Positions 4,772-17,093 of a stretch of 64,000 nucleotides of DNA are shown here, one piece after another. The stretch is from Bacilli bacterium (GTDB taxonomy: Bacteria > Bacillota_I > Bacilli_A > RF39 > UBA660): positions 8,416 through 72,415 of the forward strand of contig JAFRCD010000010.1 in the NCBI GenBank assembly GCA_017404555.1, read 5' to 3'. The position numbers and the translations under genes are program-made. A model generated the notes under the pieces. The model saw only the letters and a program-made list of their open reading frames with translations. It did not search any database and had not been told where the DNA came from. The first letter of the stretch is position 1, and the number at the start of each line of letters is the position of its first letter.

Positions 4772-7075
4772 ATGAAAGGAAAAGGTGTGGAAGTTTCTAA
4801 TTTAACAGTAGTTAAAAGAAACGGAAAAAAAGTAGATTTTGATGGTTCAAAGATTGCTTTAGCTATCAAAAAAGGATTTGATAATGTCACTGTTACTAAT
4901 GGTGACGAACTAGAAAAAGTTTATACAGAGAAAGATATTCAAACAGTCTATAAGGAAGTCATCAAGGAAATAGAATCCAACTACAATGACAAGGTAAAGA
5001 TTGAACAAATTCAAGATTTGATTGAAGAAGCTTTAAAGAAAAAAGGTTACAACGATGTTTATGAATGCTTTTCTGAATATCGTGAACGTCGTAGTCAATC
5101 AAGAGAATTGTTCTCTGATAAAAAGAAGCTTCATAAGTTCCTAAAGACTATTGAAGGATTAGGACTAAAGAGTGCTAATGAAGATGACAACAAAAGAGAA
5201 AATGCCAATGTTGATGGTGATACTGCTATGGGAACAATGCTTCAATATGGTTCAACAGTATCAAAAGAATTTGCAAAAACATATTTAATGAAAAGCAAAT
5301 TTACTGAAGCCCATGAATCAGGTGCTATTCATATTCATGATATGGATTTCTTAGGAATGGGTACTACTACCTGTATGCAAATAGAACTAGATCGTTTATT
5401 TAAAAATGGTTTTTCTACTGGTCACGGACACTTAAGAGAACCACAAGATATTATGAGTTATTCTGCATTAGCAGCTATTGCTATTCAATCTAATCAAAAT
5501 GATCAACATGGTGGACAAAGTATTCCCGCCTTTGATTTCTATTTAGCACCAGGAGTATTAAAAACATTCAAGAAACAGTTTAAACAACATATCTATGATT
5601 ATTTAGATTATGAAGGAATGTTAGATTATATTAATATGGATACTGTTGCTAAAGAAATAGATAAACTAGATAGTATTACAGTTGATTTAAAGAAGTTTGC
5701 TAGATTCTATAAAGATAGTGATATCGTTAAAAGAGGTTTTGAAAAAGCCTATGAAAAAACACTAGCTAAGACTAATAGAACAACATTCCAAGCTATGGAA
5801 GGATTTGTTCACAACTTAAATACTATGCATTCTCGTGCTGGAGCTCAAGTTCCGTTCTCATCAATTAACTTTGGAACTGATACTTCTCCAGAAGGAAGAA
5901 TGGTAGCTGAAAATTTCCTTTTAGCGACTGATGAAGGATTAGGAAAAGGAGAAACTCCTATCTTCCCAGTATCAATCTTTAAAGTAAAAGAAGGAGTTAA
6001 CTACAATCCTGAAGATCCAAACTATGATTTATTTAAACTAGCATGTCGAGTATCAGCTAAGAGATTATTCCCTAACTTCGCTTTCTTAGATTCTAAGTAT
6101 AATTTAGACTTCTATAAGAAAGGCGATTTTAGAACTGAAGTTAGTTATATGGGATGCCGTACTAGAGTTATTGCTGATGTAACTGATCTTAATAATCAAA
6201 CAACTGGTGGAAGAGGAAACTTATCTTTTACATCAATCAATTTACCAAGAATAGCTATTAAACATGGTATTTGCTTAGGTGAAAGAGATAAAGCCGATAT
6301 GAAAGGCTTCTATAAAGAACTAGAAGAAATGTTAGAATTAGTTCGTGATCAATTATTAGAAAGATTTGAAATACAATGTAGTAAACACTCATATAATTTC
6401 CCATTCTTAATTGGACAAGGAGTTTGGACTAATGGTGATAAACTAGAACCAGGAGATAGAATGAGAAAGATTCTAAAACATGGAACTTTATCAATTGGGT
6501 TCATTGGTTTGGCTGAGACTCTTAAAGCTCTAATTGGTAAACATCATGGTGAAAGTAAAGAAGCTCAAAAGTTAGGATTAGAAATAATTGGTTTCATGCG
6601 TAAGACTTGTGATAAGTTTGCTAAAGAATATAATCTAAACTTTACCCTACTAGCAACCCCAGCTGAGGGATTATCTGGAAGATTTGTTAGTATGGATAAA
6701 GCCATTTATGGAAAGATAAAAGGTATAACTGATAAGACATATTACACTAATTCATTCCATGTGCCAGTTTATTACAACATAAGTATTAAAGATAAACTTA
6801 CACTTGAGGCACCATATCATGCTTTAACTAATGCTGGACATATCTCTTATATTGAATTAGATGGAGATACTGCTAATAATGTAGAAGCATTTGAAAGTGT
6901 TATTAGGTTAATGAAAGAATTAGAAATTGGTTATGGAGCTATTAACCATCCAGTAGATAGAGATCCAGTTTGTGGATACGTTGGGGTAATTAATGATGTA
7001 TGCCCTCTATGTGGAAGAAGAGAATCAGAAGGAGTTCCAATGGAACATCTTCAAGATATAAATTGTAAATGTTAA
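4772..7075 (+). CDS. nrdD: Anaerobic ribonucleoside-triphosphate reductase large chain (class III RNR), lacking the C-terminal glycyl-radical segment
   Basis: GGAGG RBS before ATG 4772. N-terminal ATP-cone 'VVKRNGKKVDFDGSKIALAIKKGF', 'LLATPAEGLSGRF', and a Cys finger 'VCGYVGVINDVCPLCG'. The ORF ends in tandem stops TAA TGA. Confidence 0.9.
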   Translation: MKGKGVEVSNLTVVKRNGKKVDFDGSKIALAIKKGFDNVTVTNGDELEKVYTEKDIQTVYKEVIKEIESNYNDKVKIEQIQDLIEEALKKKGYNDVYECFSEYRERRSQSRELFSDKKKLHKFLKTIEGLGLKSANEDDNKRENANVDGDTAMGTMLQYGSTVSKEFAKTYLMKSKFTEAHESGAIHIHDMDFLGMGTTTCMQIELDRLFKNGFSTGHGHLREPQDIMSYSALAAIAIQSNQNDQHGGQSIPAFDFYLAPGVLKTFKKQFKQHIYDYLDYEGMLDYINMDTVAKEIDKLDSITVDLKKFARFYKDSDIVKRGFEKAYEKTLAKTNRTTFQAMEGFVHNLNTMHSRAGAQVPFSSINFGTDTSPEGRMVAENFLLATDEGLGKGETPIFPVSIFKVKEGVNYNPEDPNYDLFKLACRVSAKRLFPNFAFLDSKYNLDFYKKGDFRTEVSYMGCRTRVIADVTDLNNQTTGGRGNLSFTSINLPRIAIKHGICLGERDKADMKGFYKELEEMLELVRDQLLERFEIQCSKHSYNFPFLIGQGVWTNGDKLEPGDRMRKILKHGTLSIGFIGLAETLKALIGKHHGESKEAQKLGLEIIGFMRKTCDKFAKEYNLNFTLLATPAEGLSGRFVSMDKAIYGKIKGITDKTYYTNSFHVPVYYNISIKDKLTLEAPYHALTNAGHISYIELDGDTANNVEAFESVIRLMKELEIGYGAINHPVDRDPVCGYVGVINDVCPLCGRRESEGVPMEHLQDINCKC

Positions 7076-7099
7076 TGAGGTAAGAAAGGAGATATAATT

Positions 7100-7270
7100 A
7101 TGAAAAAAACAGTAGGTGAAGGAGTAAAATTCGAAAGAATAAGAAGAGTAACAGGATATTTATCAGGCGATGTATCACGTTTCAATAATGCTAAGAGAAC
7201 TGAAGAACATGACCGTGTTAAACATACTGGTGTTAAAGAATTAATCGCTAATGCAAAGTGTGAAAAATAA
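7100..7270 (+). CDS. Stand-alone 56-aa glycyl-radical module of NrdD
   Basis: AAAGGAG RBS (7085-7091) lies 8 nt before the ATG. 'FERIRRVTGYLSGDVSRFNNAKRTEEHDRVKH' matches the NrdD C-terminal radical motif (RxxGYL...N.[AG]K..E...RVKH). It is in the same frame as nrdD, and its stop overlaps the nrdG ATG (TAATG). Confidence 0.75.
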   Translation: MKKTVGEGVKFERIRRVTGYLSGDVSRFNNAKRTEEHDRVKHTGVKELIANAKCEK

Positions 7271-7830
7271 TGACTATTAGACTAGCGGCATATTTACAAA
7301 GTGATTCGATAGTAGATGGTGAGGGCATTCGGACAGTTATCTGGACACAGGGGTGTCCTCATCATTGTTTAGGCTGCCATAATCCTGAGACTTGGGATTT
7401 TGCTGGTGGGGCTGAAGTACCTATCAGTGAAGTAAAAGAAATAATAGATGGTTTGGAAGGGCAAGATGGACTTACCTTTTCAGGTGGAGAACCTTTTATG
7501 CAACCTAAACAGTGTGCTGAAATAGCTAAATATGCCAAAAGCTTAGGTTATAATATTTGGTCATATTCAGGTTTTACTTTTGAACAATTACTTTCTTTAG
7601 GAAAGACTAAAAAAGAAATAATGGACTTCCTAAATGAAGTTGATGTTTTAGTAGATGGAAAATTCGAACTTTCTAAAAAGAGTTATAATTGTCTTTTTAG
7701 GGGATCTACTAATCAAAGAATAATTGATGTTAAAAAGAGTTTAAAAGCTAGGAAAGCTATTATTGATGATAAATACGAAAAAGTACCAAGTAAAAATGGT
7801 CGTAAGAGACAAGAAGGAGTTTATATTTAA
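7270..7830 (+). CDS. nrdG: Anaerobic ribonucleotide reductase activating protein (radical SAM)
   Basis: 'GCPHHCLGCHN' CxxxCxxC cluster motif, 'GLTFSGGEP', and position directly after nrdD. Confidence 0.9.
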   Translation: MTIRLAAYLQSDSIVDGEGIRTVIWTQGCPHHCLGCHNPETWDFAGGAEVPISEVKEIIDGLEGQDGLTFSGGEPFMQPKQCAEIAKYAKSLGYNIWSYSGFTFEQLLSLGKTKKEIMDFLNEVDVLVDGKFELSKKSYNCLFRGSTNQRIIDVKKSLKARKAIIDDKYEKVPSKNGRKRQEGVYI

Positions 7831-7834
7831 TAAA

Positions 7835-7866
7835 AAACACAGCTATAAGTTGTGTTTTATTTTTGG
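7835..7866 (+). terminator. Rho-independent terminator (copy A of a repeated hairpin)
   Basis: ACACAGC/GTTGTGT stem (one G-U pair), loop TATAA, then a T-run. Confidence 0.65.
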
Positions 7867-7876
7867 CTAAATACAA

Positions 7877-7905
7877 TTGCTATATTTATTAATCTTCGGT
7901 ATAAT
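7877..7905 (+). promoter_or_regulatory. Putative promoter TTGCTA-17-TATAAT
   Basis: Counted spacer of 17 nt. It lies upstream of the LicD-family gene. Confidence 0.55.
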
Positions 7906-7932
7906 TTAATTGGTTAAAAAAGGAGTACTTAA

Positions 7933-8802
7933 ATGAAAAATTTTGGAACATATGATGAAAAAACATTGAAAATGCTACAAAAGGTAGAACTAGAAATGTT
8001 GAAAGATATTAATAAAGTGTGTGAAAAATATGATATTAAATACTTTGCCTTAGATGGAACAGGTATAGGAGCTATGAGACACAAGGGCTTTATTCCTTGG
8101 GATGATGACATTGATTTAAGATTCCTAGAAAAAGATGTAAGTAAATTTGTCAAATGTATGCAAGAGGAAATGCCAGATAAATATTACTTTGTTAATGAAA
8201 CTAGCTTTAAAAATTATCCTCTATCTTTTACTAAAATGTGCAAAAAGGATACTATCTTTGTTGAACATGCTACAGCAAATTCAGGAGTAGAGATAGGTAT
8301 ATTTATTGATATTGTTCCAATGGTATATGTTGACGATAATGAAAAAATAAGAAATAAGAAATTACTAAAATCGTGGTATATATATAAATTAGGGGTTTTA
8401 GCGGCAGTTAAAAATCCGGTTTTAAGTTTTGGAGGAATTAAAGCAAAAATAGTAGTGGCCGGATGCTATATAATTCATTATTTATTAAAACTACTACATT
8501 TGGATTCTGGGTTCTTTTTCAAAAAAGGTTATAAAGTTGCACTTGCAAATAAAAAAACTAACACAATCGCATCACTAAATACAGTATATAAACTAACAAG
8601 TATATATTCTGTTAACGATGTGTTTCCAGTAGTAAAAACCAAGTTTGAAGACACTTATGTTTATGTGCCCAAAGAATGTGATAAGTTGCTAAGAATTTAC
8701 TTTGGGGATTATATGGAATTGCCGCCTGAGGAAAAAAGGCATAACCATTGTCCTAAAAAATTAGTATTCGATAAAGAAAAAGAAAGCGAGAATAAAGTTT
8801 AA
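7933..8802 (+). CDS. licD: LicD-family phosphotransferase (phosphocholine/phospho-alcohol transferase to glycopolymers)
   Basis: 'LKMLQKVELEMLKDINKVCEKYDIKYFALDGTGIGAMRHKGFIPWDDDIDL' is the characteristic LicD N-terminal region with the DDDID motif. Confidence 0.8.
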   Translation: MKNFGTYDEKTLKMLQKVELEMLKDINKVCEKYDIKYFALDGTGIGAMRHKGFIPWDDDIDLRFLEKDVSKFVKCMQEEMPDKYYFVNETSFKNYPLSFTKMCKKDTIFVEHATANSGVEIGIFIDIVPMVYVDDNEKIRNKKLLKSWYIYKLGVLAAVKNPVLSFGGIKAKIVVAGCYIIHYLLKLLHLDSGFFFKKGYKVALANKKTNTIASLNTVYKLTSIYSVNDVFPVVKTKFEDTYVYVPKECDKLLRIYFGDYMELPPEEKRHNHCPKKLVFDKEKESENKV

Positions 8803-8903
8803 AGCCAATGTAGAACTAAAAGGAGGCTATAATATCAATTATAGGCTCTTTTTTCTACCTTTCATGTGGCCTGGAAATATGCTATAATATAGATGGTGAT
8901 ATT

Positions 8904-10028
8904 ATGAAAAACGTTGGTGTTGTGAGTTACAACATTAGATGCAATTTTACAAATTATGGTTCTGCCCTACAATCATGGGCGTTGAAAGAAACTATTGAGA
9001 AAATAGGTGGAGACAAACTGCATGCAAAACTAGTTGATTATTGTCCAGACGCCCACAGAGAGAGCGATCCCTTAAATCCTTATAAAAACATGTGGGATAA
9101 GGATGCAACGGCCAGAAAGAACTGTGAATTAACAATGCCAGCTATAAGAGAGAATTATAAAAAGTTTGAAGATTTTTATAACACACAATTTGATCGAACT
9201 AAAAAAATGTATGTTTCAGAAAACTTTGACAGTATTGTAGAAGAAGAAAACATAAAAAAATTTGTATGCGGCGCTGATACCATCTTTTGCGTTGATGAAT
9301 TTGGTATAGATGATGTTTTTTATGCCAACAAAAAGTGCATGAAGGAAAATTATACCTTTTCTTATGCTGCTAGTTTTGGAGATTCTCATTTTACGGAAGA
9401 AACTTATAAGCTGTTGGATCAAAGATTAACTAATTTTAAAGCAATTGGAATCCGTGAAAGTGAAATGGTTGATTATATTAAAGAACGTACAGTAGTCGAT
9501 GTAGAAAGGGTTATTGATCCAACTCTATTGTTAGAGGCTGATGATTACGAAAAGATAACAACTAAGGAGGTTCCTAAAGAAAAATACGTTTTATTATATA
9601 CAAGACGTGGTAACCAAATTATGGAAGATTATGCCGATATGATTGCCAATAAACTTCACTGCAAAGTCATTGAAATAAGTTTGAAAGCAACTAATAAAGA
9701 TAAACATGAAATGAGATATGATGCTGGTGTTGAGGAATTCCTAAATCTAGTAAAAAATGCTGAATATGTAGTAACTAATTCATATCATGGAATGATATTC
9801 TGTGTTCAATTTAGAAAGGACTTTGTTATTTTTTCTCGAGAACAATGCGACACTAAAATTGAAGAATTATTAAATATTATGGGTCTCCGAGATAGATTAT
9901 TAGTCACAGGGAAAGAAAGATTTAAAGAAGAGATAGACTATGATGCTGTTCACAACAATATTAAATCAGAAAAAGAAAAGAGTATTAAGTTTTTACAAAA
10001 ACAATTAAAAAAGGTAATAGGTGAGTAA
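8904..10028 (+). CDS. Polysaccharide pyruvyl transferase family protein
   Basis: N-terminal 'VGVVSYNIRCNFTNYGSALQSWAL' and a C-terminal 'VVTNSYHGMIF' pattern typical of PS_pyruv_trans proteins. It has its own extended -10 TGCTATAAT at 8880-8888. Confidence 0.7.
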   Translation: MKNVGVVSYNIRCNFTNYGSALQSWALKETIEKIGGDKLHAKLVDYCPDAHRESDPLNPYKNMWDKDATARKNCELTMPAIRENYKKFEDFYNTQFDRTKKMYVSENFDSIVEEENIKKFVCGADTIFCVDEFGIDDVFYANKKCMKENYTFSYAASFGDSHFTEETYKLLDQRLTNFKAIGIRESEMVDYIKERTVVDVERVIDPTLLLEADDYEKITTKEVPKEKYVLLYTRRGNQIMEDYADMIANKLHCKVIEISLKATNKDKHEMRYDAGVEEFLNLVKNAEYVVTNSYHGMIFCVQFRKDFVIFSREQCDTKIEELLNIMGLRDRLLVTGKERFKEEIDYDAVHNNIKSEKEKSIKFLQKQLKKVIGE

Positions 10029-10029
10029 T

Positions 10030-11727
10030 ATGAATAATAAATATCTTAGTAATAAAATACTAATCGAATTATTAAAAAAATATGGAATTAAAAAGTTAGT
10101 CCTATCATCTGGCTGTAGAAATGTGCCGTTTGTTTCAAATGTTGAAACTGATCCTGACTTCGAATGCTTTTCAGTAATTGATGAAAGAAACGCTGCCTTC
10201 TTTGGGATGGGGTTGAGTGAGGAGGCTAAAGAACCAGTTGCTATTGCCTGTACAAGTGGTACGGCTGCTTCTAATTATGTTTCTGGTGTTACAGAAGCAT
10301 ATTATTCTAAAGTGCCTTTAGTCGTTTTAACTTTTGATAGACATCCTTATATGTATAATCAATTGGAGACCCAAAAAATTGATCAGGAATCTATTTTTGA
10401 ATCTATTACTAAAAAAAGTGTAACATTACCGATTATTAAAGACGAAGAAGATGTTTGGTATTGTAATAGACTTATTAATGAAGCTTTTATAGAAATGACA
10501 AGGCATGGTGTAGGACCAGTACATATTAATGTTCCATTAGCTGGCGATATGAATAGCTTGTTTAATGATGATAGTAATAAAATGTCTGAAAAGGGAATGA
10601 AAAAAATTAATTATGTTTCTACAAATAATATGGTTTGGTTAAATAAAGTAGAAGAACTTCTTAAAACAAAAAAAGTACTCTTTATTCTAGGACAAGATTC
10701 CCTTTTAACAGATAAAGAAAAAGAAAAATTACGTAAATTTGCCGAAATTATGGACTGCCCTATACTGACAGATAATTTATCAAATTTTAAAAGTGAGCAT
10801 AATATTCTTGCAGGTCCCATTATTAAAGCTTTGAATTCTAAGACTATAAACGTTTTATTACCTGAGATAGTAATATCATATGGAAATAACATGCAAGAAA
10901 GAATAAAGGAAGTATTACGGGGGAAGAATATCAAACATTGGTATATTACACCTGATGGTAAAATTAGGGATTGTTTTAAAGCGTTAGATACAATATTTGA
11001 ATGTAGTATAAATGAATTTTTAGATATGTTTAATAAAAATTTTGAGAATAAGTATAAGCCAGATAAAAAATACTTTGAGAAATGGAAAAATATATCTGAA
11101 AGTATAAAACTACCAGAAATGCCATTTACTAATTTTTATGTTGCTAAAGAATTTTCTAAAATAATACCACATGATTCACTACTGCATTTGAGCATATTGA
11201 ATGCTACTAGACAGATGCAATTTTTCAATTTAGATGAATCGATAAAAGTATTTAGCAATGTTAATGCGTTTGGAATAGATGGGTGCTTGCCTACTTTTAT
11301 GGGACAAGCATATGCAACTGATAATTTAGCCTTTATTATGATAGGAGATTTAAGCTTCTTCTATGGTATGAATGCGTTATCGATAAAGCACAGGAAGAAG
11401 AATATTAGAGTATTAATGATTAATAATGGTGGTGGAGCCGAATTTCATATTCAACCTGATTCTAATAGCATCCCAACCATTGACTTGCATATTGGAGCGG
11501 CGCATAACAGGACTGCCAAAGAATGGGCAATTTCATCAGGATATAAATATTTAACCGCCAACGATAAAGAATCATTTGATAAGAATATTAAAGAATTCAT
11601 TTCTTCTGATAGTAAGGAGCCAATATTCTATGAAGTTTTTACGGATATGAAAACTGATGGAGAATTTTGTCTATCAGTGTATAGATATATGGAAGAAAGT
11701 ATAAAAGATTTGTTAAAAGAGGATTAA
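10030..11727 (+). CDS. Thiamine-diphosphate-dependent enzyme, MenD (SEPHCHC synthase)-like
   Basis: AGGTGA RBS, with ATG 10030 one nt after the upstream stop. PYR domain 'SSGCRNVPF..ERNAAFFGMG..CTSGTAASNY..LTFDRHP'. ThDP/Mg motif 'GDLSFFYGMNAL...NNGGGAEF'. Confidence 0.65.
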   Translation: MNNKYLSNKILIELLKKYGIKKLVLSSGCRNVPFVSNVETDPDFECFSVIDERNAAFFGMGLSEEAKEPVAIACTSGTAASNYVSGVTEAYYSKVPLVVLTFDRHPYMYNQLETQKIDQESIFESITKKSVTLPIIKDEEDVWYCNRLINEAFIEMTRHGVGPVHINVPLAGDMNSLFNDDSNKMSEKGMKKINYVSTNNMVWLNKVEELLKTKKVLFILGQDSLLTDKEKEKLRKFAEIMDCPILTDNLSNFKSEHNILAGPIIKALNSKTINVLLPEIVISYGNNMQERIKEVLRGKNIKHWYITPDGKIRDCFKALDTIFECSINEFLDMFNKNFENKYKPDKKYFEKWKNISESIKLPEMPFTNFYVAKEFSKIIPHDSLLHLSILNATRQMQFFNLDESIKVFSNVNAFGIDGCLPTFMGQAYATDNLAFIMIGDLSFFYGMNALSIKHRKKNIRVLMINNGGGAEFHIQPDSNSIPTIDLHIGAAHNRTAKEWAISSGYKYLTANDKESFDKNIKEFISSDSKEPIFYEVFTDMKTDGEFCLSVYRYMEESIKDLLKED

Positions 11728-11728
11728 T

Positions 11729-12763
11729 ATGCAAGAAAAAAGTATTTTAATATTGGGTGGCACCGGTGCCATGGGAACATCTTTAGTAGAGATATTGTCA
11801 CATGATGATAAATATAGTGTCTTTGTGACTACACGGCAAAGCAACCATAATGATTATAAAAATATAAAATATATAATTGGAAATGCTAGAGAAGAAGCTT
11901 TCATTCAGCAGGTATGTTCAAAAAAGTATGATGTAATTGTTGATTTCATGAACTATAATTTAGATGAATTTGAGAATTATCATACTGCACTTCTTAATGC
12001 TGCTGATCACTATTTGTTCTTAAGCTCTTGCCGGGTTTTCAGCAACGCTGAATTAATAGATGAAAGCACCCCTAGACTGTTAGAAACAACTAATGACACG
12101 GAGTTTTTAAAAACAAATAGATATGCATTAAGAAAGGCTCGAGAAGAGGATATCCTAACAAATTCTCCATATAATAATTGGACTATTATAAGACCATATA
12201 TTACATATAGTAATAGACGGTTACAACTAGGAATCTATGAGAAAGAAGAATGGTTATATAGATTATTAAACAATAGGCCATTAATATTACGAAAAGAAAT
12301 TTTAGATAAGTATACAACATTAACATATGGTAAAGATGTAGCATTAGGTATATATAATATTATTAATAATGAAAAATCATTAGGGCAAAAGATAAATATT
12401 GTCACAGAGGAATATACTACATGGCAAGACATATTGGATAAATATAAAGAAGTATTAAATCGCGAATTAAATATTGAACCAGAAATCTATTATGAAGAAA
12501 ATTTAGATGAGATTGAAATGTTGTTTGAGGGTGGTTATAACACTAAATATGACCGCTTATGGAATCGTCGATTTAAAAATGATAAAACAAAAGAATATTG
12601 TGGGGATATTGACTACAAAAAACCTTTACCAGGGATTGAACAATGCTTAGTAGAGCTAATTAACGATTGGAAAAAAGGTAAGGAAGTATTTAGAACAATA
12701 AATAGCGAATACGAGGACAAAATGAATAACTTGTGTAATCAAAAAACAAAGAGAAAGAGATGA
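11729..12763 (+). CDS. NAD(P)-dependent epimerase/dehydratase family (extended SDR) protein
   Basis: Rossmann motif 'ILILGGTGAMGTSL' and a candidate YxxxK 'YALRK'. Confidence 0.7.
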   Translation: MQEKSILILGGTGAMGTSLVEILSHDDKYSVFVTTRQSNHNDYKNIKYIIGNAREEAFIQQVCSKKYDVIVDFMNYNLDEFENYHTALLNAADHYLFLSSCRVFSNAELIDESTPRLLETTNDTEFLKTNRYALRKAREEDILTNSPYNNWTIIRPYITYSNRRLQLGIYEKEEWLYRLLNNRPLILRKEILDKYTTLTYGKDVALGIYNIINNEKSLGQKINIVTEEYTTWQDILDKYKEVLNRELNIEPEIYYEENLDEIEMLFEGGYNTKYDRLWNRRFKNDKTKEYCGDIDYKKPLPGIEQCLVELINDWKKGKEVFRTINSEYEDKMNNLCNQKTKRKR

Positions 12764-12767
12764 TAAA

Positions 12768-13841
12768 ATGATTAACTTTACAATTGGGCCAGTACAATCT
12801 AGCAAAGAAATAAGAAGAATTGGTGGCGAACAAGTACCATATTTTAGAACGCAAGAGTTTTCTAATTTGATGCTTGAAAATGAAAAACTAATTAAAAAAT
12901 TTATGGATGCTACTGAAGAAAGCAAAGTAGCATTTATAACTGGATCAGGGACAGCTTCCATGGAAGCAACTATTATGAATTTATTAACTAAAGAAGATAA
13001 AGCTTTAATTGTAAATGGTGGTGGTTTTGGACATAGATTTGTTGAGCTTTGTGAACTATATGAAGTTCCTTGTGATCAAATAATTCTAGATGTAGGACAA
13101 CCATTAACCGAAGAAATATTAAATAAATATAATCCTAGCGATTATAGTACCTTTATTGTAAACGTTCATGAAACCACGACTGGTGTTCACTATGATTTAA
13201 AATTAATTCATGATTTTTGTAAAAGAAACAGTTTGTTTTTAATAGTAGATGCTATCAGTTCATTTTTAGCGGATGAATTAAGTATGAAAGATGATGGAAT
13301 AGATGTGGTTATAACTGGATCTCAGAAAGCCTTGGCTTGTCCTCCAGGAATATCCATTATAACGTTATCTGAGAAAGCTGTGGAAAGGGTATATCAGAAT
13401 AACCCTAAGTGCCTATATTTAAACTTAAAAGAGGCCTTAGAAAATGCTAAAAGGGGACAGACACCTTTTACTCCAGCAGTAAGCATATTAAGACAAATAA
13501 ACGCTAGATTAAAACAAATTGATAATGCTGGTGGAACTGCATCAGAAGTAAAGAGAATATCAGCTCTAGCGAAATATTTCCGAGAAAGTATCAAGGATTT
13601 ACCATTTGAATATGTAACTAATTCACCATCTAATGCCATTACAGCACTTTCACCATTAAATGCTAGTGCCAATGATATATTTTTAGAACTAAAAGATAAT
13701 TATGGTATTTGGATATGTCCAAATGGTGGTGAATTAAAAGATAAGGTATTCAGAGTTGGGCATATAGGGGATCTAACTAATGAAGACTATGATAAATTAA
13801 TAGAGGCCTTCAAAGATTTACAAAAAAAAGGATTAATCTAG
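12768..13841 (+). CDS. Class V (AGXT/PhnW/SerC-like) pyridoxal-phosphate aminotransferase
   Basis: 'GSGTASMEA', 'DAISS' and 'TGSQKALACPPG' (PLP lysine context). Confidence 0.75.
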   Translation: MINFTIGPVQSSKEIRRIGGEQVPYFRTQEFSNLMLENEKLIKKFMDATEESKVAFITGSGTASMEATIMNLLTKEDKALIVNGGGFGHRFVELCELYEVPCDQIILDVGQPLTEEILNKYNPSDYSTFIVNVHETTTGVHYDLKLIHDFCKRNSLFLIVDAISSFLADELSMKDDGIDVVITGSQKALACPPGISIITLSEKAVERVYQNNPKCLYLNLKEALENAKRGQTPFTPAVSILRQINARLKQIDNAGGTASEVKRISALAKYFRESIKDLPFEYVTNSPSNAITALSPLNASANDIFLELKDNYGIWICPNGGELKDKVFRVGHIGDLTNEDYDKLIEAFKDLQKKGLI

Positions 13842-13854
13842 GAAGTGAATTATT

Positions 13855-15195
13855 ATGAAAAAAGTAATAACTTATGGTACATATGACCTGCTTCATTATG
13901 GTCACATCAGGCTTTTAGAAAGAGCTAAAGAGTTAGGAGATTATTTAATAGTTGGGGTAACATCAGATGATTTTGACAAGAGAAGAGGCAAGATAAACGT
14001 TCAGCAATCCCTAATTGAAAGAGTACAAGCAGTAAAAAGCACTGGTTTAGCTGATGAGATAATAATTGAAGAATATGAGGGCCAAAAAATAGATGATATT
14101 TGTAACTATGGTATAGATATATTTACTGTTGGATCAGACTGGGTAGGCAAATTTGATTATTTAAAGGAGTATTGTGAGGTAATATATTTAGATAGGACCG
14201 AAGGTGTTTCCAGCACTGAGATTAGGAGTAAAAATAGATCTCTTAATCTAGGAATAGTAGGTTCATTTAACTTTATTCAAAAACACTTAAACGAATCAAA
14301 ATATGTAAATGGGTTAGAAATAACTAAAATCAACTCTGAAGATAAAATACCTAAACACATGCTAAAAGAATACAATCTAACAGTAGAAGATGATTATGAT
14401 AAATTATTAGATAGTGTTGACGCTATTTATATTGCAACTAATCCTGATAAGCATTACGAAATAATAAAGAAAGCTATTGAAAAAAAGAAACATGTATTAT
14501 GTGAATCACCAATAACTTTGAAAAAAGAGGAATGTAAGAAATTGTTAGCTCTGGCTGATAAAAAAGGTGTTGTTTTAATGGAAGCTATTAAAACCAATTA
14601 TGCTAATGCATATATGCGCTTGATGCTACTTGCTAAAACAGGGGTAGTAGGGAAAATAGTTTCGGTTGATGCAACATGTACCAGTTTAAGACAATTAGAA
14701 GAATTAGGAGAAAAGAAGATAACTAATTATCAAAATAGTATCTGTGCTTGGGGACCAACTGCTATGCTACCAGTATTTCAATTGCTAGGAACTAAGTATA
14801 AAGAAAAACATATTACATCTTTATTGAGTGATAAGAATAAGAATTTTGATTTGTTCACAAAGATAAGCTTTGATTATAAAGATGCAACAGCAACAATCAA
14901 AGTAGGAAAGGGAGTAAAGTCAGAAGGGGAATTGATAATATCAGGTACAAAAGGGTATATCTATGTTCCAGCACCATGGTGGAAAATAGATTACTTTGAG
15001 GTAAGGTATGAAGATCCTGCCAAAAACAGAAGATATTTCTACCAATTAGAAGGCGAAGGGATACGATATGAATTAATTAGTTTCTTAAGGGCTATTAACA
15101 AGAAAACTAAGGTTGGTGGAATAAAGAAAGACACCACATTGGCTATCGTCGAAGTAATTGAAGATTTTTATAATAAAAAGAAAAATACTATATAG
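13855..15195 (+). CDS. Bifunctional glycerol-3-phosphate cytidylyltransferase (TagD-like) / Gfo-Idh-MocA oxidoreductase fusion
   Basis: The N-terminal ~130 aa, 'KVITYGTYDLLHYGHIRLLERAKELGDYLIVG...GSDWVGKFDYLKEYCEVIYLDRTEGVSSTEIR', closely resemble my recollection of B. subtilis TagD (HxGH motif). The C-terminal ~310 aa carry a Gfo/Idh/MocA-type Rossmann fold ('LNLGIVGSFNF', 'HVLCESP'). Confidence 0.75.
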   Translation: MKKVITYGTYDLLHYGHIRLLERAKELGDYLIVGVTSDDFDKRRGKINVQQSLIERVQAVKSTGLADEIIIEEYEGQKIDDICNYGIDIFTVGSDWVGKFDYLKEYCEVIYLDRTEGVSSTEIRSKNRSLNLGIVGSFNFIQKHLNESKYVNGLEITKINSEDKIPKHMLKEYNLTVEDDYDKLLDSVDAIYIATNPDKHYEIIKKAIEKKKHVLCESPITLKKEECKKLLALADKKGVVLMEAIKTNYANAYMRLMLLAKTGVVGKIVSVDATCTSLRQLEELGEKKITNYQNSICAWGPTAMLPVFQLLGTKYKEKHITSLLSDKNKNFDLFTKISFDYKDATATIKVGKGVKSEGELIISGTKGYIYVPAPWWKIDYFEVRYEDPAKNRRYFYQLEGEGIRYELISFLRAINKKTKVGGIKKDTTLAIVEVIEDFYNKKKNTI

Positions 15196-15213
15196 TAAGA
15201 ATGGGGCGAGAGA

Positions 15214-15573
15214 ATGGAAGATATAAAAATAATTGACCAATTTATGGATGAAAGAGAATTTAGAAACTATATAGTAAAACTATTAGATGAAAATGGTTTT
15301 ACTGATATTTCTATTGAGGATGCTCGTCTTAGTGATGAGGAACCAAAAAATAATAATGATTTAATAGCTAAAAAAGGTAAAGAAAGATATACTATTCAGA
15401 CTTTCTTAAATAAGGAAATAGGTTCCAAAGAAATAAAAGAAACATTAAGGGATATGAAAGAAGAATATGCTTCTAAAGCATTAATAATTACCAATAAGGA
15501 AGTATCTGAAGAAGTAATTAAAGAAGCAGAAGAAGCTGGCATAGAAATTTGGGATCGAAAAAAGTTTAAATAA
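15214..15573 (+). CDS. Small restriction-endonuclease-fold (Mrr_cat-like) protein
   Basis: Pattern 'GFTDI...NDLIAKKGKERYTIQTF...ALIITNKEVSEEVIKEAEEAGIEIWDRKKF' resembles the Mrr catalytic domain. The usual Q-x-K lysine is replaced (QTF). Confidence 0.45.
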   Translation: MEDIKIIDQFMDEREFRNYIVKLLDENGFTDISIEDARLSDEEPKNNNDLIAKKGKERYTIQTFLNKEIGSKEIKETLRDMKEEYASKALIITNKEVSEEVIKEAEEAGIEIWDRKKFK

Positions 15574-15603
15574 AAAGCACAACTATTAAGTTGTGTTTTT
15601 ATT
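15572..15603. terminator. Bidirectional terminator (copy B of the repeated hairpin)
   Basis: CACAACT/AGTTGTG perfect stem, loop ATTA, flanked by A- and T-runs. It sits between convergent genes. Confidence 0.7.
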
Positions 15604-15799
15604 CATCACGATAAGTATATTCCTTTAGCTTTTTCTTTAGTTTAAGTTCTTCTTTCCTAGTAGCTTTATCATAATAAGAAAACTCTGCTGATCTAGCTGT
15701 TTTTACTTGTTTACGAGTTTTAACTTTAGGAACTTTTATTATCCTATCTTCTTTCGGATCTTTCTTAGGAGTAACATCATAACTTTTAGGTTTAGTCAT
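15599..15799 (-). CDS. Small highly basic hypothetical protein (66 aa)
   Basis: Lys/Arg-rich ORF. Only coding potential and context support it. Confidence 0.4.
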   Translation of the reverse strand: MTKPKSYDVTPKKDPKEDRIIKVPKVKTRKQVKTARSAEFSYYDKATRKEELKLKKKLKEYTYRDE

Positions 15800-15891
15800 A
15801 TAATCACTTCCTAGTACTATTATAACGAAGAAATAAACTTTATTGCAAATATCTTTCTATCGGTATATACTAAAATTGAAAGGAGAAAAGG

Positions 15892-16422
15892 ATGAGAAAA
15901 GGAATAAAAATATTAAGTTCATTATTATTAGTGGTTGCAGTTTTAACTTTAGTAGGTTGTGCTGCTAAAAGAGAAGATTTAAAATTTAATGATACTAAAG
16001 GAAGTTTGGTTTTCTCTGTAAAAGAGGATGGTAATTATAAGATTTCTAAAAACCCTAAGGACTTAAGAAATACTAGAGAACAAGGAGTATTAATTGGAAA
16101 AGACTTCAAAATAAGTATTGAGTTTGATGATTCATTTGGTTATTTCTTTGATGGTGATTTTAATAAACTAAAAGAGAAGAGAAGAAATGATTATGATGAC
16201 TTTAAAGAAGTAACTTATAGTGATATGGAAGGTATTCAATACTTCTATTCTGGTTATATGTGTTATAACGTTATCTTCCCAATTGAAGGAAATAAAGACT
16301 ATACTTTAGTTTTATCAGTTTATGGTGCTGAAGATAATGAAAAAGCTGCCAAAGAAGCTATTAAGAATGAAGAAGTATTAGATGTGCTAAATCATATAAG
16401 TAATGTTAAGGTAAAAAAATAA
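15892..16422 (+). CDS. Lipoprotein of unknown function
   Basis: Signal peptide with lipobox 'LVGC' and an AGGAGAAAAGG RBS. Confidence 0.7.
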   Translation: MRKGIKILSSLLLVVAVLTLVGCAAKREDLKFNDTKGSLVFSVKEDGNYKISKNPKDLRNTREQGVLIGKDFKISIEFDDSFGYFFDGDFNKLKEKRRNDYDDFKEVTYSDMEGIQYFYSGYMCYNVIFPIEGNKDYTLVLSVYGAEDNEKAAKEAIKNEEVLDVLNHISNVKVKK

Positions 16423-16446
16423 GTATCGATAACGATACTTTTTCTT
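16421..16446 (+). terminator. Rho-independent terminator
   Basis: AAGTATCG/CGATACTT stem followed by a T-run. Confidence 0.7.
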
Positions 16447-16493
16447 TGCGAAAAGAGTCAAATTAAGATAAAATATTATTAGGAAGTGGTTAT

Positions 16494-17093
16494 ATGAGTA
16501 AAAAAGTAGAACTAGTAAATAAAAGTATTGGTGCAGCCTTTTTAATATCATTAGGTAATTATGCCTTATTAAAACTAGGTAATCCTATCGGACCAGTTAT
16601 CTTTGCCTTAGGTCTTTTAGGTGTTTGTTATCTAGGACAGAATTTATTTACTGGTAAATGTGGTTTCTTATTTGCGGATAAAATAAAAGTATTAGATCTA
16701 GTTATAATTCTATTAATAAACTTAGTAGCTGGTTATCTATTTGGACTTTTATACTCCATAACTGATCCGGAAGTTTATAAAGCAGCTATTGCTAAAGTAG
16801 CTAGTTGGGATTTTTCCTTAGCTTTCTTTATAAAAGCTTTTTTATGTGGAACTATCATGTATATAGCTGTAGCGATGTATCGCAAAGGAACACCTCTAGG
16901 AATAATATTTGGTATACCTCTATTCATTTTCTGTGGTTTCCAGCACTGTATTGCGAATATAATAACTTTAGGTGTTGCCAGAACCTTCGATTGGTCAATT
17001 GTTTTGGCTATAATTGGTAACTTTGTAGGATCATTATTTATGTGGTATATATCTAAAGATGTAGAAGAAAAGAAGAAAAAGAGAAAAAAGTGA
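16494..17093 (+). CDS. Formate/nitrite transporter (FNT) family-like membrane protein, short form
   Basis: 'NLFTGK' and 'GFQHCIANI' resemble the two FNT signature loops. At 199 aa it is shorter than classical FocA/NirC. Confidence 0.55.
   Translation: MSKKVELVNKSIGAAFLISLGNYALLKLGNPIGPVIFALGLLGVCYLGQNLFTGKCGFLFADKIKVLDLVIILLINLVAGYLFGLLYSITDPEVYKAAIAKVASWDFSLAFFIKAFLCGTIMYIAVAMYRKGTPLGIIFGIPLFIFCGFQHCIANIITLGVARTFDWSIVLAIIGNFVGSLFMWYISKDVEEKKKKRKK

Follow-up and report, generated by a model that had tools for sequence, protein, structure and literature searches.

A TagD-type cytidylyltransferase fused to a Gfo/Idh/MocA-fold domain without redox motifs and its aminotransferase partner: a candidate route to an amine-bearing surface head group

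The locus

We analyzed a 64,000-nucleotide stretch of DNA (hereafter called the window) from a Bacilli bacterium of the GTDB lineage RF39; UBA660 (GenBank assembly GCA_017404555.1, contig JAFRCD010000010.1, forward-strand positions 8,416 to 72,415), in which a protein consisting of a TagD-type cytidylyltransferase (CT) domain and a Gfo/Idh/MocA-fold domain is encoded directly downstream of a class V aminotransferase (AT). A first-pass annotation, made from the letters alone, had placed the two genes at 12768-15195 and had proposed that the fusion enzyme makes CDP-glycerol and oxidizes it, and that the AT then aminates the product to provide a donor for LicD, as in the WbpB/WbpE pathway. Both open reading frames were found at precisely these coordinates on the plus strand. 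They are located towards the end of an operon-like block of seven genes, which starts with a LicD gene and continues with genes for a pyruvyl-transferase-family protein, a MenD-like thiamine diphosphate (ThDP) enzyme, an SDR protein, the AT, the fusion, and a small Mrr-fold protein (Table 1). As described below, the most likely role of the cassette is to decorate a surface polymer with a three-carbon phosphate that bears an amine, probably serinol phosphate.

The cytidylyltransferase half of the fusion

The family PF01467 (CTP_transf_like) spans residues 5-125 of the 446-residue fusion with an E value of 2.4e-19. The N-terminal part is indeed TagD-like as had been annotated, since residues 1-126 can be aligned over their full length with B. 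subtilis TagD (1COZ; E 9e-40, approximately 52% identity as counted from the printed alignment) and also with S. aureus TarD (2B7L). The two TagD motifs quoted in the annotation, HYGH and RTEGVSST, are both present; together with K46 they are aligned with those of 1COZ and 2B7L and are invariant in 16-81 homologues, and the mean column conservation of the domain over 81 homologues is 0.89. Some features nevertheless set the domain apart from TagD. It scored 118.2 bits against the TagD equivalog model TIGR01518, below the cut-off of 165.4, the position of TagD K44 is occupied by Arg, and the TagD loop PEKNWEQK is changed to EEYEGQK, in which E75 of the invariant EEYEG stretch is aligned with TagD W74. 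Because of the score below the cut-off, the permanent fusion to the Gfo-like domain, the altered loop, and the AT partner, the substrate of the CT is probably not glycerol 3-phosphate.

The Gfo/Idh/MocA-fold half of the fusion

PF01408 (GFO_IDH_MocA) spans residues 131-243 (E 1.5e-21). An AlphaFold2 model of the fusion constructed with 64 homologues (pLDDT 91.7, pTM 0.81) gave a confident, fixed arrangement of this domain relative to the CT, and the C-terminal two thirds of the model were superposed on 3E9M (TM 0.85), dihydrodiol dehydrogenase 2O48, and KijD10. The two-domain Gfo fold was also recovered by Foldseek, with TM values of 0.79-0.85 to 3E9M, 4HAD, 2O48, and KijD10. The fold assigned in the first-pass annotation therefore stands on PF01408 and the superposition, whereas the label of oxidoreductase does not, because the catalytic and cofactor motifs are missing. 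The EKP motif reads ESP with loss of the catalytic Lys, and the 81 homologues have Ser (60), Ala (13), Thr (6), Pro (1), or Leu (1) at this position but never Lys; opposite the ESP of the query, 3E9M, 4HAD, 3EVN, YjhC, and YhhX all retain EKP in HMMER alignments. The glycine loop GxxGxGxxA/G is reduced to G-x-x-G, the fusion having LGIVGSFNFI, and the residues after G136 vary among the 81 homologues. In addition, the E/D-x3-Y/H motif is replaced with an invariant CAWGPTA-type stretch, the corresponding residues being ELGSY in the sister clade described below and HGSGSY in 3E9M.

The distribution of conserved residues is reversed relative to that expected for a dehydrogenase. Residues 132-190, the beta1-beta3 cofactor-binding stretch, are the most variable part of the fusion (conservation 0.47), and residues 331-405 reach 0.85, which is close to the value of the CT. 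Judged by its sequence, this domain does not qualify as a canonical NAD(P) oxidoreductase, and it very probably carries out no NAD(P)-dependent redox reaction. We think that it has been kept as a platform for the CT, either for structure or oligomerization or for the binding of a ligand.

The aminotransferase and its alternative

The AT matched PF00266 (Aminotran_5) with 73.4 bits (cut-off 21.5; E 2.2e-20), and both its PLP-lysine motif, S185-Q186-K187, and its FRVGH arginine are invariant in 27 orthologues. A near-orthologue in the PDB, 3F0H (E 8e-137), is entitled only "aminotransferase", a title that gives no function. The best NCBIfam matches were PhnW-AepZ, BhcA, PhnW, and SerC models, all far under their cut-offs (157.7 bits against 360.8 for TIGR03301 and 127.4 bits against 400.8 for TIGR02326), and the PDB matches included 2-aminoethylphosphonate (AEP) transaminases and Tde1415 (6PD1, E 6e-20). 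No DegT match was obtained for the AT in the family profile scan.

The PhnW-AepZ match and these PDB hits would fit a phosphonate module resembling the Pnt pathway, with the AT as an AEP transaminase and the CT producing CMP-AEP for LicD, and the presence of a ThDP enzyme in the cassette is in line with it. However, the scores of the AT fall far short of the PhnW cut-offs, most of the fusion loci lack the ThDP enzyme, which is MenD-like, and the CT is of the TagD type rather than the LicC/PntC type. Furthermore, no phosphoenolpyruvate mutase above the cut-off was found in the 96%-complete genome (best PF13714 match, 21 bits against a cut-off of 31.5). We rejected the phosphonate reading on this absence and consider its chance of being correct to be negligible.

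In other genomes, the place of the class V AT can be taken by a HisC-like AT of class I/II, which is not homologous to it. The HisC-like proteins scored 214-236 bits on TIGR01141, and their top PDB matches are all HisC; on the CobD model TIGR01140 they scored 137-146 bits, lower than on the HisC models. When AT types were placed on a maximum-likelihood tree of 81 fusions, at least 5-7 switches between them were seen across well-supported branches, and one sister pair has a HisC-like AT in one member (L048) and a class V AT in the other (L068). Because the switching recurs between near-identical fusions, the two AT families appear to be functionally interchangeable. HisC acts on imidazole-acetol phosphate, SerC on phosphohydroxypyruvate, and PhnW on phosphonoacetaldehyde; in both partner families there are thus enzymes whose reaction is the amination of a carbonyl adjacent to a phosphate or phosphonate group.

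Spread and neighborhood of the fusion

The first-pass annotation had suggested a search for the same fusion in other genomes together with its neighbors. The fusion proved very common, accompanied by a near-constant AT, LicD- or TagF-like transferases, and GNAT acetyltransferases. More than 8000 strong homologues were found, of which the best 120 were 61-68% identical and all had both Pfam domains, and at least 497 relatives were confirmed in species-representative genomes. Among the matches listed, the carriers are Lachnospiraceae, Oscillospiraceae, Bacilli, Prevotellaceae, Muribaculaceae, Methanobrevibacter, and Saccharibacteria; Bacillota, Bacteroidota, Methanobrevibacter, and Saccharibacteria thus share the fusion at approximately 60% identity.

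Neighborhoods were counted in 80 loci of these confirmed relatives, with totals of 79-81 depending on the count. The gene immediately upstream of the fusion encodes a class V AT in 43 of the 80 loci and a HisC-like AT in 17. When the distance was extended to 6 kb, the numbers were 46-51 and 23-24, respectively (79-81 loci), and an AT of either type was located near the fusion in about 72 of 79. The adjoining AT, directly upstream of the fusion in most of the 79 loci, is therefore shown by comparative genomics to be a true functional partner; its substrate and product, and the acceptor, are what we infer below. LicD, suggested earlier as the transferase, is the usual transferase accompanying the AT and the fusion, being present in 44 of the loci and often in multiple copies, and TagF-like glycerophosphotransferases occur in several. 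Twelve loci have a GNAT acetyltransferase gene next to the fusion, divided equally between the two AT types (six each). Directly upstream of the fusion lies a gene for a LicD-GNAT fusion protein in one locus (L009:8488-9978) and a gene of the octopine/nopaline dehydrogenase family in another (L044:8797-9936). These two would make sense with a primary-amine head group, which could undergo N-acylation or opine-type N-carboxyalkylation, and the neighborhood as a whole suggests an amine that is modified.

The same neighborhoods bear on the simplest alternative, that the fusion merely makes CDP-glycerol for LicD in the manner of TagD and that the AT serves an unrelated step. All the TagD catalytic motifs are kept by the CT, and TagF-like CDP-glycerol transferases are found with the fusion in several loci. 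It is difficult, however, to reconcile this reading with an AT that is a near-constant immediate neighbor in two non-homologous versions, with a CT that falls under the TagD equivalog cut-off (118 against 165 bits), and with the recurrence of GNAT genes nearby, and we regard it as decidedly improbable.

A sister clade with intact redox motifs

When the Gfo-like domain alone was used as the query of an exhaustive search, a sister clade of 33-41% identity came to light in which GTGRIA, EKP, and ELGSY are retained. Since these motifs are common to the rest of the superfamily, the clade of the window is the derived, degenerate one. The sister-clade proteins occur as standalone forms and as CT-Gfo, CT-Gfo-GDPD, Metallophos-CT-Gfo with or without GDPD, and LicD-Gfo-GDPD. 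No AT was found in the five informative neighborhoods of sister-clade fusions, and a sixth contig was too short to tell whether an AT is present. The EKP lysine is kept in four of these five fusions. The fifth (L081:701-3882) retains the glycine loop and E-x3-Y but has ENP for EKP. Downstream of it lie a LicD gene and, beside the fusion, a standalone EKP-type Gfo gene, an intermediate arrangement in which the redox step may be supplied in trans. The pattern is clear in this small sample: an AT accompanies the loss of the motifs and is absent where they are intact or mostly intact.

These results allowed us to weigh the route of the first-pass annotation, in which the CT makes CDP-glycerol, the Gfo-like domain oxidizes its C2 to a CDP-linked ketone, and the AT converts the ketone to CDP-serinol. 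The domain order and the position of the AT beside a Gfo-fold domain do recall the WbpB/WbpE pair, the Gfo-like domain folds well and has residues 331-405 strongly conserved, and the CT is about 52% identical to TagD. On the other hand, none of the close homologues has the EKP lysine, the E/D-x3-Y/H motif, or the glycine loop, conservation is lowest in the NAD-binding half, and the partner ATs are small-molecule types (HisC-like or AGXT/PhnW/SerC-like), not of the DegT/WbpE type. Moreover, the clade with intact or mostly intact motifs has no AT in its five informative loci. With the redox motifs gone and the partner ATs of other types, the proposal of oxidation of CDP-glycerol followed by transamination was abandoned as unlikely; the amine probably comes from direct transamination.

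Other domain fusions link the CT-Gfo proteins to three-carbon phosphate chemistry, among them relatives joined to GDPD and LicD domains. A 795-residue protein (P0301; L113:3994-6381) has a complete glycerol-3-phosphate dehydrogenase, GpsA, in front of a CT-Gfo with ETP for EKP, and its gene adjoins that of a Wzy-type polymerase. This arrangement places three-carbon phosphates derived from dihydroxyacetone phosphate (DHAP) at the entrance of the CT. A 74-residue fragment upstream of P0159 was also considered as GpsA and was found not to be GpsA.

EKP-type Gfo domains were further observed in combination with TagD-type CT, GDPD, calcineurin-like phosphoesterase, LicD, and even MurJ (P0140-P0168, P0302-P0363), the Metallophos-CT-Gfo-GDPD proteins being 1100-1460 residues long. 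The combinations of EKP-type Gfo suggest a multi-enzyme route around glycerophosphodiesters, and this large, uncharacterized family may be related to the pneumococcal CDP-2-glycerol genes gtp1-3. When an EKP-type Gfo query was run against 401 Lactobacillales genomes, mostly generic paralogues were obtained, and no cluster name carried a Gtp label. In the pneumococcal CDP-2-glycerol system, a LicD-type protein, WchX, is accompanied by three pathway genes (PMC1391919).

Operon, cassette, and genome setting

Table 1. Features of the cassette and its boundaries (positions in the window)
Feature	Position	Strand	Basis
Class V AT (AGXT/PhnW/SerC-related PLP enzyme), 357 aa	12768-13841	+	PF00266, 3F0H
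CT-Gfo fusion, 446 aa	13855-15195	+	PF01467 + PF01408
TagD-type CT domain, fusion residues 1-127	13855-14235	+	PF01467, 1COZ
Gfo/Idh/MocA-fold domain without redox motifs, residues 128-446 and stop codon	14236-15195	+	PF01408, fold match
LicD-family phosphotransferase, 289 aa	7933-8802	+	PF04991
Polysaccharide pyruvyl-transferase-family protein	8904-10028	+	PF04230, E 2.3e-29
MenD-like ThDP enzyme	10021-11727	+	TIGR00173 274 bits, PF02776
SDR / NmrA-like NAD(P)-binding protein	11729-12763	+	PF01370, PF05368, PF13460
Mrr_cat-fold protein, 119 aa	15214-15573	+	PF04471, E 2.6e-14
nrdG stop codon and intrinsic terminator (left bracketing copy)	7826-7866	+	hairpin 7834-7858 followed by T run
Promoter-like site upstream of LicD	7877-7905	+	TTGCTA-17-TATAAT, 10/12 matches, consensus match only
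Intrinsic terminator (right bracketing copy)	15574-15603	+	hairpin 15578-15595, T runs on both sides

The block is placed between nrdDG and housekeeping genes and is bracketed by near-identical copies of a stop-plus-terminator module of about 40 nucleotides, which delimit a cassette of 7.7 kb. The core of the left copy, CACAGCTATAAGTTGTGTTTT, closely resembles positions 15578-15600, and the core shared by the two modules is CACA(G/A)CTAT(A/T)AAGTTGTGTTTT. These copies were recognized by eye, a repeat finder run on 7000-16500 having missed them owing to indels. It looks as if the cassette had been inserted at the nrdG terminator.

The genome is 0.94 Mb in size and 96% complete. We searched 24 other genomes of the same family (0.8-1.3 Mb) and found the fusion in one of them. 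This patchy distribution, together with the occurrence in at least several hundred species across phyla, indicates a horizontally traded decoration, and the AT/fusion/LicD block is an accessory cassette. The LicD of the block is the sole LicD in the genome and the CT of the fusion is the sole TagD-type CT, and no TagF-like gene was found in the genome. The LicD protein matched PF04991 over the full length of the profile (positions 1-227 of 227; 127.7 bits, E 9.6e-37), and relatives with 59-61% identity adjoin an AT and a fusion in two other loci (L001 and L005). FemAB, PcsB-like, and FtsEX genes are present in the window and, with the small genome, indicate a reduced-genome, wall-bearing, Bacilli-like gut organism.

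The genes for the pyruvyl transferase, the MenD-like enzyme, and the SDR protein (8904-12763) constitute a second, separable module lodged between LicD and the AT. The pyruvyl transferase was found in only 13 of the 79 fusion loci, the MenD-like enzyme in about five, and the SDR seldom accompanies the fusion. Elsewhere, as in L042, an FrhB/FdhB-like Fe-S protein is the partner of the pyruvyl transferase instead. The Mrr_cat-fold protein is acidic, is encoded by the final gene before the terminator without a partner methyltransferase, and has no evident role in the pathway.

Proposed pathway

The AT, the CT-Gfo fusion, and LicD would form the core of the cassette, a three-gene head-group module that is likely to make a CDP-activated, amine-bearing phospho-alcohol. 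In the first step, the class V AT would turn the glycolytic ketone DHAP into serinol phosphate (2-amino-3-hydroxypropyl phosphate). We propose DHAP because it is the simplest substrate common to both AT families that gives a product of the size used by TagD, and the AT is predicted to be a DHAP aminotransferase. Such a transamination of DHAP to (S)-serinol phosphate is catalyzed by C. jejuni Cj1437 (PMC12409886, PMC13276843), and DHAP aminotransferase activity is also known for the N-terminal domain of B. elkanii RtxA (PMC3222319). In the second step, by homology to TagD, the CT would combine serinol phosphate with CTP to give CDP-serinol. LicD is predicted to move the CDP-activated head group onto a surface glycan or polymer; in the third step, as its family and its co-occurrence with the other two genes suggest, it would place phosphoserinol on a surface glycan or a teichoic-acid-like polymer. 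The outcome would be a zwitterionic phosphodiester decoration with a free amine. The recurrent GNAT genes would fit acetylation of this amine in some lineages, and because the window has no GNAT gene, the amine would stay free in this organism. The same order of transamination, cytidylylation, and LicD-type transfer has been proven in the phosphonate Pnt pathway with Tde1415 (PMC6697681).

As a whole, we give this sequence of AT, CT, and LicD reactions an even chance of being correct; the more specific claim that the activated alcohol is serinol stands at even or slightly below. An amine-bearing three-carbon phospho-alcohol such as serinol phosphate, which the first-pass annotation had named as the head group, is thus retained as the best guess, and only the oxidation step that was to lead to it is dropped. 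The annotation's remark that no CDP-serinol pathway had been described also agrees with our literature search, which found no paper with the term "CDP-serinol" and co-mentions of serinol and cytidylyltransferase only in unrelated contexts.

The order of the first two steps could be the reverse, with DHAP cytidylylated to CDP-dihydroxyacetone and the AT aminating the CDP-linked ketone to give the same end product. Syntheses of this kind are found for CDP-arabinitol (S. pneumoniae AbpA/AbpB) and CDP-glucitol (C. jejuni HS:5), in which a ketose phosphate is cytidylylated first and modified later, and the sequence data fix no order. Nevertheless, enzymes of the HisC, SerC, and PhnW types bind a terminal phosphate or phosphonate, and Cj1437 acts on free DHAP (PMC12409886). 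A bulky CDP ester would also need to fit two unrelated, freely swapping AT scaffolds. We therefore consider cytidylylation before amination to have a small chance.

A different amine is also conceivable, namely phosphoethanolamine, a C4-C6 polyol phosphate carrying an amine, or 3-amino-1,2-propanediol phosphate with glyceraldehyde 3-phosphate as its precursor. Aldehyde substrates are favored by the descent of the class V AT from PhnW-like enzymes, and the HisC family also contains the decarboxylases CobD and Cj1436 (PMC12409886), in keeping with the scores of 137-146 bits on TIGR01140. However, the sharing of one role by two unrelated AT families points to plain transamination, the scores of the HisC-like proteins are higher with HisC than with CobD models and their top PDB matches are all HisC, and the TagD-like CT suits a substrate of the size of glycerol phosphate. 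As the GpsA fusion P0301 also points to C3 chemistry derived from DHAP, another amine seems doubtful.

Several points weigh against the route from DHAP to CDP-serinol. No AT-CT(-Gfo) fusion was found among the longer homologues, which have Metallophos, GDPD, MurJ, and GpsA fusions instead. In about five fusion loci whose flanks are adequate, an AT is missing from the neighborhood; of the five genomes whose fusion locus lacks one, a single genome (G403) has a class V AT elsewhere, and the class V AT query gave no match in the other four. The position of TagD W74 is that of a choline-binding Trp in CCT, and we considered the W74-to-Glu substitution as a pocket marker of the AT-linked clade; it was rejected because Glu is also present in the EKP-type relatives (EDHEG). 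Being so close to TagD in sequence, the CT may after all use plain glycerol 3-phosphate. The C-terminal half of the Gfo-like domain is strongly conserved with 52 near-invariant residues, which means that the domain does something, and it may have an unconventional catalytic role. Finally, we know of no reported glycan structure with phosphoserinol, and we infer both the substrate and the step order of the module.

Taking these points together, we tentatively put forward a joint reading, whose parts we think somewhat less than evenly likely to hold all at once. CDP-serinol would be an undescribed activated alcohol, and a phosphoserinol decoration with a free amine, optionally N-acetylated by GNAT enzymes, would be present on the surface glycans of species from gut and rumen that number in the hundreds, methanogenic archaea among them. 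The Gfo-fold domain would be a repurposed pseudo-dehydrogenase with a new conserved role, and the AT would have taken over the DHAP-converting step of an ancestral reductase-CT fusion. Phosphodiester head groups such as phosphocholine, phosphoethanolamine, glycerol phosphate, and AEP shape the recognition of surfaces by hosts, phages, and antimicrobial peptides, and gut bacteria are known to have zwitterionic glycans that act as immunomodulators. Cultured strains are found among the carriers (Segatella baroniae DSM 16972, Clostridium mobile MSJ-11, Laedolimicola intestinihominis CLA-AA-H132, and Otoolea muris DSM 111138) and 3F0H has already been crystallized, which makes the hypothesis directly testable. 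The fusion also offers a clean case of a dehydrogenase domain that loses its chemistry while under strong constraint.

Comparison with known systems

The closest relatives of the CT are TagD and TarD (1COZ, 1N1D, 2B7L; TIGR01518), with which it shares the fold, HxGH, K46, and RTxGxSTT. TagD/TarD supply a CDP-alcohol to wall-polymer transferases, as the CT of the fusion would do in our model. In contrast to them, the CT of the window is permanently fused to a Gfo-fold domain of 320 residues and is partnered with an AT.

A cytidylyltransferase joined or adjacent to an enzyme that converts a ketose phosphate is known from TarI/TarJ, H. influenzae Bcs1, and the CDP-arabinitol and CDP-glucitol synthases. 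The motif-intact CT-Gfo fusions of the sister clade probably work like these CDP-alditol synthases, whereas in the clade of the window the redox partner is degenerate and the AT appears to take over the carbonyl-converting step. The WbpB/WbpE pair, a Gfo-type dehydrogenase and a DegT-type AT acting on UDP-sugars, resembles the locus in that a Gfo-fold protein adjoins an AT. It differs in that the Gfo-like domain of the window has neither the catalytic Lys nor the cofactor loop, the AT is not of the DegT type, and the substrate would not be a sugar nucleotide.

The transamination proposed for the AT is the one catalyzed by Cj1437 and RtxA (PMC12409886, PMC13276843, PMC3222319). In 23 loci the class V AT is replaced by a HisC-like one, and HisC, after which that family is named, aminates a ketone adjacent to CH2-O-phosphate. 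This comparison is one of activity. The AT of the window itself is of class V. In C. jejuni, however, serinol phosphate is amide-ligated to glucuronic acid by an ATP-dependent ligase without activation by CDP.

The three-step logic is shared with the Pnt pathway, in which AEP transaminase and PntC are fused in T. denticola Tde1415 (6PD1) and LicD-like transferases follow (PMC6697681): a class V AT forms an amino phospho(no)-compound, which is activated by a cytidylyltransferase and then added to a surface glycan by an enzyme of the LicD type. Unlike the Pnt pathway, the genome of the window has no phosphonopyruvate decarboxylase; moreover, the Pnt cytidylyltransferase is of the LicC type whereas that of the window is of the TagD type, and the head group would be a phosphate ester instead of a phosphonate. 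The module of the window is thus a variant of the "CDP-alcohol plus LicD" decoration systems, one that is widespread and uncharacterized.

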